Origin: an uncultured Thiotrichales bacterium
Lineage (GTDB): Bacteria; Pseudomonadota; Gammaproteobacteria; UWMA-0217
Direction: 5' to 3'
Assembly (NCBI GenBank): GCA_964620675.1
Contig: CAZUJU010000009.1
Location: 13,943 to 77,942, forward strand
DNA length: 64,000 nucleotides
A program made the position numbers and the translations under genes. The notes under the pieces were generated by a model. It was not told where the DNA came from and did no database searches. It worked only from the letters and a program-made list of their open reading frames with translations. The first letter of the stretch is position 1, and each line of letters begins with the position of its first letter. This document shows positions 42,677 to 52,485 of this stretch, piece after piece.

Positions 42677-43168
42677 TCAGTGCGCGGCGCGGTTGAGTGA
42701 CACCCAGTGGGTCATGACGGTTTCATCCAGTTCCGCCTCTTCGATCAAGAGTTCATTTTTCTGCGCTTCCTGATCGAGTTCCTTGAAGAGTTCGGTAAGT
42801 TTAAGTACGTCCCGATTGGCTTGGGCGAGGGTCTTTTGGCGCGCTTGCAATTCGCGCTGAGCCGATTCGAGGTTTAGATAGGCGGTTTTGAGTTCCGCCT
42901 CAAGTCGCAGTTGTTGGAGCTTGAACTTGTCCAGCGTGTGTCGGAAGTCGTTGATCTTGCTGGAGGCGACAGGCTTGCCCAGCATCCCGAGAAACATCTC
43001 GCGTTCGCTTTCGGCGCGAAAGGCGCGGAAGGCCTCGTACTGCCGCGATTGTTCCTTTAGCAGATTGATGCATTCCTCCTGTTTGCGTTGCGCCTCGAAT
43101 ACCCGGCTCCGGGCGAGGCGCTCGCGATGTTCGCGAATCCGTAGCAGCATGAGCGGCTTATCGCTCAT
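42677..43168 (-). CDS. sctO: T3SS stalk protein SctO (YscO/FliJ-like coiled-coil)
   Basis: 163-aa, all-helical, charged coiled-coil protein. Lies immediately downstream of the T3SS ATPase gene with a 4-nt overlap. Confidence 0.6.
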
Positions 43169-44490
43169 ACCCCGGCGAGTTCTATCAATTGGGCGAGGGT
43201 GGCGCCGTACTCCGAGTTGTGAAACACGTCCTGTTGCAGCAAGGCCCGTATCGCCTGGATTTTCTGAATGGCCTCGTCGGCTTCGGCGTCGTGTCCGCGT
43301 TGATATTCCCCAACCCGAATCAGCAGCTCGATCTCGCGGTACTTGGCAAGCAGATCGCGCAGTTTGCCCGCTGCGGCGCGATGCTCGGGCGAAACGATCG
43401 CCATCATGACCCGGCTCAGGCTCTGCAGAATGTCGATTGCCGGATAGTGGTTCTTGGCGGCGAGTTCACGCGACAGCACGATGTGTCCGTCGAGGATCGA
43501 ACGGGTCTCGTCGGCGACCGGTTCGTTGAAATCATCCCCTTCGACCAGCACCGTGTAGAACGCGGTGATCGAGCCCTTATCGGAATTGCCGGAGCGCTCC
43601 ATCAGTTTCGGCAGCGCGGCGAACACCGAGGGCGGAAACCCGCGCCGCGTCGGGACTTCGCCGGCCGCCAGCCCGATCTCGCGCTGGGCGCGGGCAAATC
43701 GGGTGACCGAGTCCATCAGCAAGAGCACGCGCAGTCCCTGGTCGCGAAAATACTCGGCGATCGCGGTGGCGACATACGCAGCCTTGACCCGCTCCATCGC
43801 CGGGCGGTCGGAGGTGGCGACGACGAGCACCGACTTCGCCATGCCGGCTTCACCTAAATTGTGCTCAATGAACTCCCGGACTTCGCGGCCGCGTTCGCCG
43901 ATCAGCGCAACCACGGTGATATCGACCTCGGCATTGCGCACCAGCATCCCCATCAGGGTACTTTTTCCAGCCCCGGCCGCGGCGAATATCCCCATACGCT
44001 GACCTTCGCCGCAGGTGACGAATGCGTCGAGGGCGCGGATTCCGAGCGGAACCGGCACTTCGATCATGCGCCGCAGCAAGGGGTCGGGCGGATCGGCGTT
44101 GACCGGGTAGGACTCGCTGCTGACGATCGGGACCGATTTGCCGAAGTCGATCGGCTGCCCCAGTCCGTTCAATACCCGACCCCGCAGTTGGGGTCCGACC
44201 GGCACGGAGAGCTTGGTACCGGTGGTGCTGACCTGGGTGCTCGGCGAGATGCCGGTCATATCGCGCAGTGGGGTCAGCAATGCGACGTCCTTTTCGAAAC
44301 CGATCACTTCGGCGAACGCAGTGGTGGCTTCACCTGGCGAGTGGAGTATGCAGGTTTCGCCGACGCTGGCGCCCGGTGCGATCGCCTTGATGATGGTGCC
44401 GGCGACCTGGATCACGCGGCCACGTGGGACATAGGGCGTATAATTACGCACCGTTTCGCGCAATATCGTGCTGAGATAGTCCAACATCAT
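43165..44490 (-). CDS. sctN: Type III secretion ATPase (SctN/YscN/InvC family)
   Basis: Walker A (AAAGAGKST), Walker B, and FliI/YscN-family N- and C-terminal domains. Flanked by sctV and sctO. Confidence 0.9.
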
Positions 44491-46589
44491 GCGGAGTTTT
44501 CCGCGGGCGCAAGGCCGATCTTGCCGAGCGGTTGCACGGTAATTTCCGGCGCCAATTCCTGGAAGGAAAGCACGGGGACTTCGTAAAATTCGAGTTCGAT
44601 CAGCTTGCGCAGATGGCGGCGCAATTCCATGGTCGTCAACAACACGACCCGGGAATAGTTGGCGAGACTGGCGCGTACGTTGGCGCGGATCGAACTCAGT
44701 AGCTGTTGCGAAACCTCGGGATCCAGCGCGAGGTAGCTGCCGGTTGGCGTCTGCCGCACACTGCCGCGCAACGTATCCTCGATCGCGGGATCGATGAGGT
44801 AGACCGGCAACAGATTATTGCCGGCGCTGAAGCGGTAACTGATCTGGCGCTTGAGACTGATCCGCACATATTCGCAGAGCTGCTCGGTGTTCTGCTCCTT
44901 GGGCGCCCACTCCACCAAGGCCTCGAGAATCAGCCGCAAATCGCGAATCGAGACGTCTTCAGCGACCAACCGGCGCAGGATGTCGGCGAGTTTTCCCAAG
45001 GGTAAGGCGCGCAAGGCTTCCTTGATCAGTTCCGAATACTGCTGTTCGACCTGTTGCAGCATCTGGTGCGTTTCCTGGATCCCGACGAACTGACTGGCAT
45101 TGCGATGCAGTACGTGCGCGAGGTGACGACTCAGGATTGCCGGCGGCGACAGGACTTCGATGCCGTGCGCGTTGAGTTGCGGCCGGTACTTGGGATCGAT
45201 CCAGACGGCCGGCTTGCCCGGCAGAAACTCCTGATGAGCCTGCACCGGGATATTCAGAATCTGAAGATCCTCGACCCCGTGGGTCGACAACAAGCGGTTG
45301 ATGCCAAGCGAACCCTTGCCGACCGGGATCTCGTGCACTGTGATGACGTAGCCGTCACGCTCGACCTCGGGTGTGAAGCGCATGTGCACCCCCGGGAACG
45401 GCACGCCCAGCCGTTGATGCAGCGCCTTGCGGACCTTCGCCAATTCTGGATTCAGCACCGCCGGCGCCAGCGCCGCGCGGGCGGATAAAGCGACGTCGAG
45501 CAACACCGGAACGTTGGGAGCCTGATCGCCCTTCGCATCGCCGGCAACCGCTGCCATCTTGCCATCGGACGAGGAGAACCCAGAGACGTCCTCGACCAAG
45601 GCATGGGCCGGCGCATCGCGCATGCGGGTCAGGGTGAGCCCGATCGCACCGGTCACCGCGCCGAGAATCAGAAACACCGGGGCCGGAAAGCCCGGAATCA
45701 TCGCGAACCCGACCATGATCGCCGCGCCGATCAGCAGCGCGTTGGGTTGCGCGAGCACCTGATTGCCGATGTCGGCACCGAGATTGGAGCCATCTTCGGA
45801 AGCGACGCGGGTGACGATGATCCCCGCGGTGATCGCGATGAACAGCGCGGGGATCTGCGTCACGAGTCCGTCGCCGATGGTCAGGATCGAATACAGCTCG
45901 AGCGCGTCGCCGGTCTCCATGCCTTGCTGGAAAACTCCGATCGACAGGCCACCGATGATGTTGACCAAAATTATCAGGATCCCCGCGATCGCGTCGCCCT
46001 TAACGAATTTCATCGCGCCGTCCATCGAGCCGTAGAGTTGGCTCTCGCGCTCGAGATTGGTGCGGCGCTTACGGGCCTGCTCGATCGTGATCAGGCCCGC
46101 GCGTAAATCGCTGTCGATGCTCATCTGCTTGCCGGGCATACCGTCGAGTGAGAATCGGGCGCTGACCTCGGCGACCCGTTCCGCGCCCTTGGTGACCACG
46201 ATGAACTGAACCAGGGTGATGATTAGGAACACCACCAGACCGACGATCAGATTGCCGCCGACAACGAAATCGCCGAAGGTGAAGATGATCGCGCCAGCGT
46301 CGGCCTGCAACAAAATCAGCCGCGTCGTGGTAATCGAAAGCGCCAGACGAAACAAGGTCGTCAGCAGCAGCACTGCGGGAAACGCCGAAAACGCAACTGG
46401 CGACTGGATATACACGGCGACCATCAGCAGCACCACCGAAGTACCGATATTGACGGCGACCAGAGTGTCGACGAGCCAGGTCGGAATCGGCAGGATCATC
46501 ATGAAGATGATCGAAACCAGCATGATCGCCAGCGCGATGTCGCTGCGCCGCGTGAGCGCGAGTAGAGGGGTTTGCAGACTCAAAAACAT
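44487..46589 (-). CDS. sctV: Type III secretion export-apparatus gate protein SctV (YscV/LcrD/InvA/FlhA family)
   Basis: 700 aa with 8 N-terminal TM helices, the conserved FHIPxx/SxDG regions ([15 protein letters not shown]) and a large cytoplasmic domain. Confidence 0.9.
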
Positions 46590-51412: not shown

Positions 51413-52033
51413 ATGATCGAAGGCGTATCTCCGCAGCAATTACTAACGGACTCGTTTCTGTCCGGTACGACTGCCGGGCGCATGCAACCGCCTTCGCCGG
51501 CGGCGATCGAGTATTTCGACCGACAGCTCGCGGGCGCCGCGTCGCAGGACCGCAGCGTCGCTTCCGGTTCGCTTGACACGGGTTTGCAGGGCGCTGCCCG
51601 AGTTCCGCAGGGGGAGTCCGCAAACTTCGACGTCATGAATCGGCTGGCAGGTATCAATAACGAATACGAAGGCGTCGTGCAGCGACTTCAGGATTGGCCA
51701 ACGTTTCGTACCTACATGGAGCAACACGGCATTCTCGACGACAGCCCACTCGCTGAGCAGTCCGGACCTAAACATGTGTCGAATGTCGACGAAGCGACGG
51801 GGGCGGGACTTGATCGCAAGGCGACGATCGAGGATTACGTCAGGGAGGGGATCGAGCGCATGGAGCAAATGCATCAGACCACCCAGGCGTACTACGGCGC
51901 GGGTGCCGAATATACGCAAGACTCGGCGCGCTGGTTCATGAGCACGGAGTTTTGGTTGACCAAGATCAAGGTGCTGACTTCAGCGGTTTCTCAAGCAGGA
52001 ACTGCGGTTCGAACGCTATTTACGAGCCAGTAG
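51413..52033 (+). CDS. Hypothetical hydrophilic protein of 206 aa in the SctH/YopR position; possibly a secreted early substrate
   Basis: No TM segment. The C-terminal amphipathic helix (TKIKVLTSAVSQAGTAVRTLF) resembles rod/needle C-termini. Confidence 0.3.
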   Translation: MIEGVSPQQLLTDSFLSGTTAGRMQPPSPAAIEYFDRQLAGAASQDRSVASGSLDTGLQGAARVPQGESANFDVMNRLAGINNEYEGVVQRLQDWPTFRTYMEQHGILDDSPLAEQSGPKHVSNVDEATGAGLDRKATIEDYVREGIERMEQMHQTTQAYYGAGAEYTQDSARWFMSTEFWLTKIKVLTSAVSQAGTAVRTLFTSQ

Positions 52034-52248
52034 CCCAAGCTACGGAACTGCGGTGAGGAATGGTCCCGGCTTCGTTTGCGTTAAGCCGGGCGGTGACTTA
52101 AGCCACGCATAAACATATAACCTTTTACATATTGGGCTCGGGGAGTAAGTGAGGTACGATCCTAGTCGAGCACAAGTGGCAAAGCAACAGGTTGCCAAGG
52201 CCTGTTGAGTTCACGCGAATGCGCGACAGCCCCTGATTCGAGGTTGAT

Positions 52249-52485
52249 ATGAGTAACATGCTAGATCCAAATGACCTGCCGTTGCGGCAGCTGCTGAATA
52301 TCTACCAGCCGAAAGAGGATGGTGAGTCACGCAAATTGTCCAAATCCGCCCTGGCCACGCGCAAGGATGATGATGCTGGGCGAGCGCAATTGTTTCTGGA
52401 GCCCGCCGGCGCATTTGAGCGCGACGTCGATATTCATTCCGAGATCAACAGTCTTTTGATCAAGGTTGTGCAGGATATCAAATAG
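52249..52485 (+). CDS. Small protein in the SctI (inner rod) position, possibly needle/rod family
   Basis: 78 aa. The C-terminal INSLLIKVVQDIK resembles the conserved C-termini of needle/rod proteins (e.g. ...IDAAIIQNFR). Confidence 0.35.
   Translation: MSNMLDPNDLPLRQLLNIYQPKEDGESRKLSKSALATRKDDDAGRAQLFLEPAGAFERDVDIHSEINSLLIKVVQDIK

Follow-up and report, generated by a model that had tools for sequence, protein, structure and literature searches.

In the current analysis we have examined a stretch of 64,000 nucleotides from an uncultured Thiotrichales bacterium (GCA_964620675.1, contig CAZUJU010000009.1, positions 13,943 to 77,942 of the forward strand), referred to here as the window, which encodes genes of a type III secretion system (T3SS) at positions 42677-52485. 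This region is probably the first locus of an intact non-flagellar T3SS (NF-T3SS) whose genes are distributed over two loci, and the role preferred for its short SctC protein (SctC') is that of an adaptor to an outer channel encoded in trans.

Two divergent operons have been identified in the region, STAS-sctX-sctY-sctV-sctN-sctO on the minus strand and short sctC-sctD-sctE-"F"-sctG on the plus strand, the latter followed by genes for proteins of 206 and 78 residues. Pfam and NCBIfam searches have recovered each gene named in a first-pass annotation of this DNA at its coordinates, and no T3SS genes have been found elsewhere among the window open reading frames (ORFs) scanned. The same annotation had reported that core genes and the secretin pore are missing from the window, which is upheld: tblastn of the window with the SctJ, SctK, SctL, SctQ and SctR proteins of a relative sharing 72% SctV identity gave no match, none of these genes is present among the window ORFs scanned with Pfam, and a hidden Markov model (HMM) of the secretin C-domain does not match the window.

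Two loci and the selection acting on them

The genes absent from the window are encoded on another contig of the same metagenome-assembled genome (MAG). The 72% relative (L001 and L002; L-numbers label the loci from relatives and assemblies compared with the window) has the same divergent layout with a short SctC of 228 residues, and its plus operon continues into sctJ, sctK, sctL, sctQ and sctR. A search with the SctR of this relative has identified a 'Thiotrichales' SctR on JBHJNS010000080.1 (L009, 12.3 kb), which belongs to the MAG GCA_050330555.1 ('Thiotrichales bacterium'). Proteins identical to the window's short SctC and SctV are encoded on JBHJNS010000050.1 (100.7 kb) of that MAG, whose locus L012 equals the window sequence from position 38124 on, and also on a stromatolite metagenome contig (ERZ909567/SRR3310977).

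L009 encodes sctJ-K-L-Q-R-S-T-U followed by a LuxR/GerE regulator, with non-T3SS genes (a beta-propeller lipoprotein and DUF4347) upstream of sctJ. This gene set is the exact complement of locus 1. A comparison of synteny had been proposed as a check; made with the contiguous relatives (L002, L017, L018 and L022), whose order is C'-D-...-J-K-L, it places the break before sctJ, between it and the gene for the 78-residue protein or the I-position gene. About 720 accession numbers separate the proteins of one locus from those of the other, the GC content is 0.585 in locus 2 and 0.588 in the T3SS part of the window, and the tetranucleotide correlation of L009 with the window is 0.97.

Both loci recur in a sister strain from the stromatolite metagenome, on a V-locus contig (L102) and a J-U contig (L101). 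In the part fetched, L102 shares 99.9% nucleotide identity with L003 and L004 over the STAS-to-sctO stretch, and the contig is given as 99.9% identical to the MAGs GCA_964613875.1 and GCA_050329935.1. Both J-U contigs have the same upstream flank, made up of the beta-propeller lipoprotein gene and an ORF of 602 residues. The junction of the 78-residue protein gene with a dnaE-type polymerase gene is found in the window and in GCA_050330555.1, GCA_050329935.1 and GCA_964613875.1. Scattered T3SS modules are frequent in the clade (L007, L010, L019, L023). The split predates the divergence of the two sister lineages and both halves have been maintained since, which argues against decay and against an assembly artefact. 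A split system with its modules elsewhere, one of the readings offered by the first-pass annotation, is thereby borne out: sctJKLQRSTU lie on another contig of the MAG, the same pair occurs in the sister strain and the loci have co-diverged.

The lipoprotein encoded on the same strand directly upstream of sctJ, at L009:1044-3167 (+) and L101:2241-4361 (+), has 707 residues, a PF09826 beta-propeller and the lipobox LAGC. It has not been found in L010 or L007, and may or may not belong to the system. In L002:3000-3856 (-), sctJ is called as two ORFs, one of 51 residues with the lipoprotein signal and the start of the protein, and one of 226 residues with the remainder. A frameshift, a sequencing error or a genuine split could account for these calls, which are the same in the Logan contig and in the NCBI MAG.

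All 13 ORFs of locus 1 are intact. The synonymous divergence (dS) between the sister strains is about 0.9-1.5, the same at both loci. The ratios of nonsynonymous to synonymous divergence (dN/dS) against the sister lineage are 0.045 for V, 0.038 for N, 0.08 for O, 0.055 for C', 0.04 for E, 0.026 for G, 0.10 for the 206-residue protein, 0.11 for the 78-residue protein, 0.19 for D, 0.21 for STAS and 0.36 for X and Y. The corresponding values of locus 2 are 0.05 for R, 0.04 for S, 0.05 for T, 0.11 for J, 0.15 for L, 0.17 for K and 0.21 for Q. These ratios are rough because dS is saturated, and none is near 1. Both loci are under purifying selection. The suggestion that the window carries a decaying T3SS does not agree with these data, as the ORFs are intact, dN/dS is 0.03-0.36 against the sister lineage and the missing genes are present elsewhere.

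The short SctC family and other traits of the clade

In SctC' a Sec signal peptide is followed by the N0 and N1 domains of secretins and, at the C-terminus, by a DUF4124 beta domain bearing the motif Y-x-W-x-D-x-x-G; the protein has no N3 or pore domain. Its score with TIGR02516 is 106 bits against a cut-off of 238. In a HMMER profile search of 1.84 billion cluster representatives the approximately 27 best matches (E<1e-35) are almost all of 176-281 residues, with the tail covered. Full-length secretins (550-700 residues) appear in the same search only from E~1e-34, and only over their N0-N1 part. An alignment of 28 members shows the signal peptide, N0-N1 and a nearly invariant tail motif, Y-x-W-x-D-x-x-G...SS-PP. 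DUF4124 has been matched in 26 of these 28 sequences (best 2.9e-11) and the Secretin domain (PF00263) in none. The protein had been labelled an N-terminal fragment, which is misleading for what is, at 223 residues, a full-length member of a conserved and diverse family. NCBI annotates short SctC merely as 'secretin N-terminal domain-containing protein'.

The AlphaFold (AF2) model of SctC' has a predicted local distance difference test (pLDDT) score of 88, and its N0-N1 part superposes on the N0N1 domains of InvG, MxiD and EscC at 1.5-2.4 A. The matching entries include the solved structure of MxiD N0N1 with the C-terminal domain of MxiG, which corresponds to the contact with SctD. The tail is modelled as a four-stranded beta unit.

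Loci of the SctC' family were sought in GTDB genomes with an alignment of seven sequences. The family has been identified in T3SS clusters of further Thiotrichales, of Competibacteraceae/Competibacterales and of one Granulosicoccaceae MAG. The typical locus has the order (GerE)-O-N-V-Y-X <> C'-D-E-F-G-(I-like)-J-K-L. Within 10 kb, the secretin C-domain HMM has no match in any short-SctC locus or in the window, and in the same scan it matches every full-length locus recovered (L024-L050).

A stand-alone N0-N1 protein of 220 residues is encoded among proS, purM, DUF3108, mrp/apbC and metG in a Competibacterales MAG (JBHJHK010000305.1, L023:7487-8149 (+)). That MAG also holds a T3SS-linked short SctC (L022), and the MAG CAZGON likewise has two copies (L018 and L020).

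The small ORFs downstream of sctD had been assigned to the yscE-F-G-H-I positions. The SctE and SctG assignments are retained, the F-position protein lacks similarity to SctF, and the H and I labels are probably shifted, a SctI-like C-terminus being found, on weak evidence, on the 206-residue protein. SctD itself has an FHA-like cytoplasmic domain, periplasmic domains and a Y4YQ_C-type C-terminus (Pfam Yop-YscD_cpl and Y4YQ_C). The 79-residue protein is identified by its sequence as a true SctE relative, because jackhmmer searches started from it reach the SctE-position ORFs of Shewanella, Escherichia and PVC-group loci. An ORF of 60 residues at 50439-50621 is missing from the public gene calls for the identical contig and is therefore probably spurious.

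The 76-residue F-position protein is 95% identical to that of the sister lineage despite saturated dS, and is the most conserved of the small genes. It has no match to PF09392 or to any SctF family of Pfam or NCBIfam, and we do not call it SctF because the hhalign comparison of its family with the SctF proteins of 16 canonical loci is not significant (P 0.04-0.19). Its position and the chaperone genes on either side make it a candidate for a secreted filament or needle subunit, belonging to a distinct family. In the Granulosicoccaceae MAG (L006:1100-6600 (-), on the 2.2-Mb contig CBDDAA010000002.1) four copies of a 71-residue homologue are encoded among Gly-rich proteins. One of the interspersed Gly-rich proteins has a DUF1521 (NopE-like autocleavage) domain, and a protein of 904 residues without Pfam matches is encoded directly upstream of sctV.

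The 206-residue protein is probably a SctI-like inner-rod protein, judged from its C-terminus. Its last 20 residues, VLTSAVSQAGTAVRTLFTSQ, align end to end with canonical SctI C-termini, the match being weak (hhalign P=0.0045, probability 8%); in this alignment the protein's terminus AVSQAGTAVRTLFTSQ is matched with SctI C-termini such as KTSQNVETLMKAQ and KASTAIQTLIKNQ. No Pfam, NCBIfam or PDB sequence match has been found for this protein. The 78-residue protein has no database matches, its homologue in the 72% relative is encoded directly upstream of sctJ, and its family is lineage-specific, limited to loci of the window, L016 and L002 type. PDB sequence searches with the 206-, 76- and 78-residue proteins have given nothing meaningful.

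The autocleavage motif NPTH of SctU is, to our knowledge, nearly universal. The SctU of the window's MAG (L009:8684-9730) has VIVMD-IGIAVAL where the canonical sequence is V(I/V)xNPTHIA. NPTH is absent from nine clade members, namely L009, L010, L006 and L052-L057, the last six being the metagenome loci most similar; the variants, such as VMD-IG, VVD-LD, ISD-ID and AGVS-L, have a one-residue deletion. Canonical and more distant SctU proteins in the same scans retain NPTH or NPTR.

The fusion of the yscXYV block to yscN-O, described as non-canonical in the first-pass annotation, is present and is common to the clade relatives L001, L007, L017 and L022; it also occurs in L006, without detectable X and Y. 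The window, locus 2 and the contiguous relatives L001 and L002 have shown no SctW (YopN/TyeA), SycN, SctP or translocator operon, and the clade loci examined have no SctW/SycN before sctX and no SctP after sctO. The more distant Competibacter-type locus L008 has the order HrpJ/TyeA-SycN-X-Y-V. The idea of a reduced non-canonical apparatus is supported by the short SctC with its DUF4124 tail, the SctU without NPTH, the X-Y-V-N-O fusion and the apparent absence of SctW and SctP; these are traits of the whole clade and not of this genome alone.

Genes for DUF1521 (NopE-like) and ankyrin-repeat proteins adjoin the relatives' loci, a neighbourhood suggesting that substrates are extracellular or directed at eukaryotes. 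In L007 a gene for an ankyrin protein lies directly downstream of sctO, so that proteins of this type may serve as substrates in the clade. The window itself encodes an ankyrin-repeat protein at 39-1043 (+), at its left edge and about 41 kb from the T3SS genes.

The STAS gene occupies the same position in the relatives L001-L004, and its product, of the anti-anti-sigma type, is likely a partner-switching regulator. No kinase or phosphatase partner for it has been found in the window. In the Competibacter-type locus (L008:4905-7663) a STAS gene is located upstream of sctW, beside genes for a HATPase_c_2 kinase and a SpoIIE phosphatase. By analogy, the STAS genes suggest partner-switching control of these T3SS, of the type known from Bordetella BtrUVW.

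Proposed machine, competing explanations and known systems

Locus 1 would supply SctV with SctX/SctY, SctN, SctO, SctD, SctC', SctE and SctG around a divergent small subunit, and the SctI-like protein. Locus 2 would supply SctJ, the sorting platform SctK/L/Q, the export core SctR/S/T/U and the LuxR/GerE regulator, and the products of both would assemble into one machine. The N0-N1 ring of SctC' would dock on the C-terminus of SctD, as in canonical injectisomes, and DUF4124, in place of N3 and the pore, would tether this ring to a partner in the outer envelope. The preferred partner would be a secretin or other outer-membrane channel encoded elsewhere, comparable to the pairing of RhcC1 with RhcC2. 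A channel in trans is favoured because the parts for export of a polymerising subunit are kept (SctE/G, SctX/Y, the SctI-like protein and the conserved F-position protein), because relatives have effector-like neighbours, and because RhcC1/NolW, the single precedent known for a SctC made of N-terminal domains alone, works with the separate secretin RhcC2 (PMC3459982). Gonococcal TfpC, the sole DUF4124 protein to have been studied, is predicted to be a type IV pilus factor located in the periplasm, and this pilus is a secretin-dependent machine (bioRxiv 10.1101/2020.09.26.314724); for the role of DUF4124 this parallel is a lead and not evidence.

The machine would probably export a single substrate class, made up of the subunit and effectors, without the canonical translocator switch, because no cleavable SctU and no SctP, SctW or translocators have been seen in the loci named above. 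In Yersinia, mutants with a non-cleavable YscU still export needle subunits and effectors and fail to export translocators. A non-cleaving SctU would therefore fit a machine that has no translocon or hierarchical switch.

A more far-reaching proposal concerns the clade as a whole. A Ysc-derived T3SS of Thiotrichales, Competibacteraceae and Granulosicoccaceae would have given up its own secretin pore and lost SctU autocleavage, and, with no gatekeeper, ruler or translocators seen, its N0-N1-DUF4124 protein would dock through DUF4124 onto a heterologous outer-membrane channel, for example the secretin of a type IV pilus or type II system. This would amount to a second, independent invention of the RhcC1/RhcC2 kind and to a simplified one-step machine. 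We offer this proposal tentatively and consider it somewhat doubtful.

Several observations weigh against a two-locus machine with its channel in trans. No partner outer-membrane channel has been found in about 76 kb of the window's MAG or within 10 kb of the relatives' loci. The isolated DUF4124 tail model has no Foldseek match in the PDB below E=0.8, so its fold provides no functional lead. The F-position protein has no significant similarity to SctF and is at most a putative needle subunit. The link between the two halves comes from MAG binning and co-occurrence, and the dN/dS values are rough, as said. Moreover, SctJ and SctR of locus 2 are closer to L010 (67% and 70.5%) than to L002 (52% and 61%), and for SctV and SctN of locus 1 the nearest relative is L002 (72% and 77.5%); because of these differing affinities the two halves may have different histories.

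We consider it unlikely that the system is, as the chief competing mechanism would have it, a split machine resembling the T3SS* of Myxococcus and ending in the periplasm, with SctC' capping or anchoring its end, for example on peptidoglycan through DUF4124, and with periplasmic release or hand-over of substrates. The absence of a secretin pore domain from the window and from every short-SctC locus would fit such a machine, as would the SctU without NPTH, the lack of a recognisable SctF, the fact that no SctW, SctP or translocators have been seen and the existence of a functional secretin-less T3SS in Myxococcus (PMC10433427; PMC3459982). However, SctE, SctG, the conserved F-position protein, the SctI-like protein and SctX/SctY, which serve the export of a polymerising subunit in Ysc systems, are kept, and so are precisely those secretin domains that couple to SctD. 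The candidate effectors of NopE-like and ankyrin type adjoin the relatives' loci, and SctV is of the Ysc type and not of the Myxococcus type.

It is very improbable that locus 1 is a decaying, non-functional relic left after a rearrangement had removed sctJ-U. At least eight core genes are missing from the 64 kb, the products of X, Y, STAS and D share 50-63% identity with those of the sister lineage and are far more diverged than V and N, and partial NF-T3SS loci have been noted to be rare and quickly deleted (Abby and Rocha, PMC3459982). Against this stand the 13 intact ORFs out of 13, the dN/dS well below 1 for every gene, with dS to the sister lineage at about 1-2, and the same junction in that lineage; moreover, the MAG and the sister strain both carry the missing genes, which are intact there and evolve under purifying selection.

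We attach hardly any credence to an error of assembly or binning, by which a cluster really contiguous as C'-D-...-I-J-K-L-Q-R-S-T-U would have been joined chimerically at the dnaE-type gene. Relatives at 60-72% SctV identity do have the contiguous order, one public assembly of the same sample (L013) breaks inside sctD, and over positions 50001-52000, where the small ORFs of the plus operon lie, GC content falls to 0.54, with GC skew increased to 0.165. Yet the junction with the dnaE-type gene recurs in the three MAGs listed above, the J-U contigs of both strains have non-T3SS genes upstream of sctJ, and scattered modules are common in the clade (L007, L010, L019). Identity of the ORFs with the FlhA, FliI and FliJ of a flagellar system, which share FHIPEP and ATP-synt_ab with them, is refuted by the injectisome-specific SctD, secretin N0-N1, SctX, SctY, YscO, SctE and T3SS_ATPase_C, by VcrD/SctV being the best named relatives of SctV, and by the lack of flagellar genes among the window ORFs scanned.

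The preferred two-locus system with an adaptor-type SctC' is related to the Ysc family (Yersinia Ysc, Pseudomonas Psc and Vibrio T3SS1 Vcr/Vsc). Its SctV is of the VcrD type, the nearest named relatives being Vibrio VcrD at about 55-56% identity, and a SctX/SctY pair is encoded upstream of sctV (TIGR02502 above its cut-off, NF052415 just below). The order sctC-D-E-F-G-(H)-I-J-K-L is present in contiguous relatives, and SctE and SctG chaperones flank the F position. In a tree the N0-N1 part of SctC' groups with Ysc-type secretins, and its best named plasmid matches are AscC and YscC (32-34% identity, E 1e-22 to 1e-25). Unlike the Ysc family, SctC is without N3 and pore and has DUF4124 instead, there is no SctW/SycN before sctX, sctN-O are fused behind sctV, and sctP is missing. 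In SctU, sequences such as VMD-IG stand in place of NPTH, and the F-position protein has no sequence relationship to YscF. A translocator operon (lcrGVH-yopBD), a pilotin and VirF have not been seen, and the genes are spread over two loci.

The rhizobial Rhc system has a split secretin, RhcC1 (NolW) and RhcC2, in which RhcC1 has been proposed to link SctD to the separately encoded pore (PMC3459982). It resembles the present system in keeping a short protein made of secretin N-terminal domains only beside core T3SS genes; the Bradyrhizobium NolW also has 223 residues and is 30% identical over N0-N1, and SctD has a Y4YQ_C-type C-terminus. In contrast, the NolW tail has neither DUF4124 nor YxWxDxxG, its N0-N1 part groups with HrcC, away from the DUF4124 family (in a tree with low bootstrap), SctV and SctX/Y are here of the Ysc type, and no RhcC2-like Tad secretin has been found in about 76 kb of the MAG or within 10 kb of the relatives' loci. 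The truncation of SctC is probably independent of rhizobial RhcC1, because the tail differs and the N0-N1 tree puts NolW with HrcC.

The 'needle-less' T3SS* of Myxococcus is conserved and apparently functional without a secretin pore, recognisable needle or translocon (PMC10433427; PMC3459982). It is described as having no outer-membrane component and is a basal branch of NF-T3SS. The present system is likewise conserved and apparently functional, and no secretin pore, recognisable needle or translocon has been seen in it. Compared with the published description of the Myxococcus system, it is instead a derived Ysc-type relative that keeps secretin N0-N1, SctE/G, SctX/Y and an F-position subunit, and its hosts are Gammaproteobacteria of microbial mats and of activated-sludge-type lineages. 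A distribution of core genes over several loci is also found in the functional T3SS of Chlamydiales and Hamiltonella (PMC3459982), which belong to another phylogenetic family and have a full secretin, a cleavable SctU and translocators.

Taken by injectisome features, SctV, SctN and SctD are present in the window, and SctR/S/T/U, SctJ and SctK/L/Q on the second contig of the MAG; a secretin pore domain, SctF and the NPTH of SctU are not matched. Nothing describing such a clade has been found in the open-access literature, and nothing relevant on a T3SS lacking a secretin or NPTH outside Myxococcus and rhizobia or on a T3SS in Competibacter. A T3SS clade with its secretin reduced to the inner adaptor part is apparently undescribed.

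Window features and implications

The features identified in and beside the two operons are listed in Table 1.

Table 1. Coordinates of the T3SS genes of locus 1 and of the flanking features in the window
Feature	Positions	Strand	Remarks
Dioxygenase_C gene (flank)	41779-42435		Adjoins the sctO side
SctO stalk protein, last gene of the minus operon	42677-43168	-	PF07321 YscO, 48.1 bits
SctN ATPase, 441 residues	43165-44490	-	ATP-synt_ab and T3SS_ATPase_C; P-loop GAGKST intact
SctV export gate, 700 residues	44487-46589	-	FHIPEP, 756 bits
SctY-like TPR chaperone	46589-46984	-	NF052415 T3SS_chap_SctY, 66.9 bits, just below the cut-off of 70; TPR Pfam matches
SctX (YscX-like), Ysc-family-specific accessory protein	46995-47360	-	TIGR02502, 43.4 bits against a cut-off of 30; PF09474 on the identical public gene
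STAS-domain protein, first gene of the minus operon	47406-47804	-	Pfam STAS PF01740, 45.8 bits; public gene call starts at 47762 (118 residues)
Divergent intergenic region between the operons	47805-48123	.	Position only; promoters presumed here
Short SctC (SctC'), 223 residues	48124-48795	+	TIGR02516 model positions 2-137 of 463 only
SctD inner-membrane ring protein	48802-50193	+	TIGR02500, 105 bits against a cut-off of 86; public gene call starts at 48889
SctE-like needle co-chaperone, 79 residues	50190-50429	+	Weak TIGR02501 and PF08988 matches
F-position protein, 76 residues, Gln-rich, helical, ending QQSQQIA[RQ]	50618-50848	+	Between the SctE-like and SctG-like chaperone genes
SctG/CdsG-like TPR chaperone, 122 residues	50935-51303	+	NF052304 CdsG 1.5e-7; TPR_19; weak HrpB1_HrpK
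206-residue protein, long-form SctI-like candidate	51413-52033	+	C-terminal similarity to SctI, weak
78-residue protein, last gene of the plus operon	52249-52485	+	tblastn match to L002 g79b
DNA polymerase III alpha (dnaE-type) gene, 1148 residues	52509-55955	-	Flank beyond the 78-residue protein gene

Start and stop codons had been described as overlapping throughout the minus operon. They do so for O/N, N/V and V/Y, and do not for Y/X and X/STAS. The intergenic region has the same divergent layout in L001, L003, L016, L017 and L022. Its comparison with the region upstream of sctJ (L009:3167-3560) has revealed no convincing shared regulatory motif. The elements loosely shared by these two regions are CTATAAC beside CGAAAG/CTTTCG, TATAAC and the 10-mer ATGCCGAACG, which are too weak to be taken as a regulator site.

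The cluster is bounded, as earlier noted, by a dioxygenase-type gene and a polymerase gene, the latter being called dnaE-type here and not dnaE2. The PHP-domain region of this polymerase contains an additional low-complexity stretch of about 100 residues (roughly 137-256) that is lacking from the 1073-residue protein of the sister lineage. No imuA/imuB-like gene has been noticed beside the polymerase gene. A RES-Xre toxin-antitoxin pair follows the polymerase gene at 56183-57335. The scanned parts of the 64 kb encode housekeeping genes, including rpoE-rseAB-degP-lepA-lepB-rnc-era-pdxJ, glnD and dapD among others, and also a two-component system. No Rfam family reaches its gathering score in the window.

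The gain, exchange and loss of the injectisome secretin is a central question in the evolution of T3SS. The departures from the canonical secretin described in the literature consulted are two, the secretin-less Myxococcus system and the rhizobial RhcC1/RhcC2 replacement. If the proposal made here is true, the present clade would be a third independent case, within the Ysc lineage, and the SctD-binding N0-N1 ring would be a separable adaptor module. The naturally non-cleaving SctU, together with the apparent absence of SctP, SctW and translocators, would then be a natural experiment on the substrate switch, and DUF4124 would gain its first structural context. Annotations such as 'incomplete T3SS' or 'secretin N-terminal domain-containing protein' can hide an intact multi-locus variant system. 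The proposed machine would also point to the use of T3SS by mat-forming and sludge bacteria.

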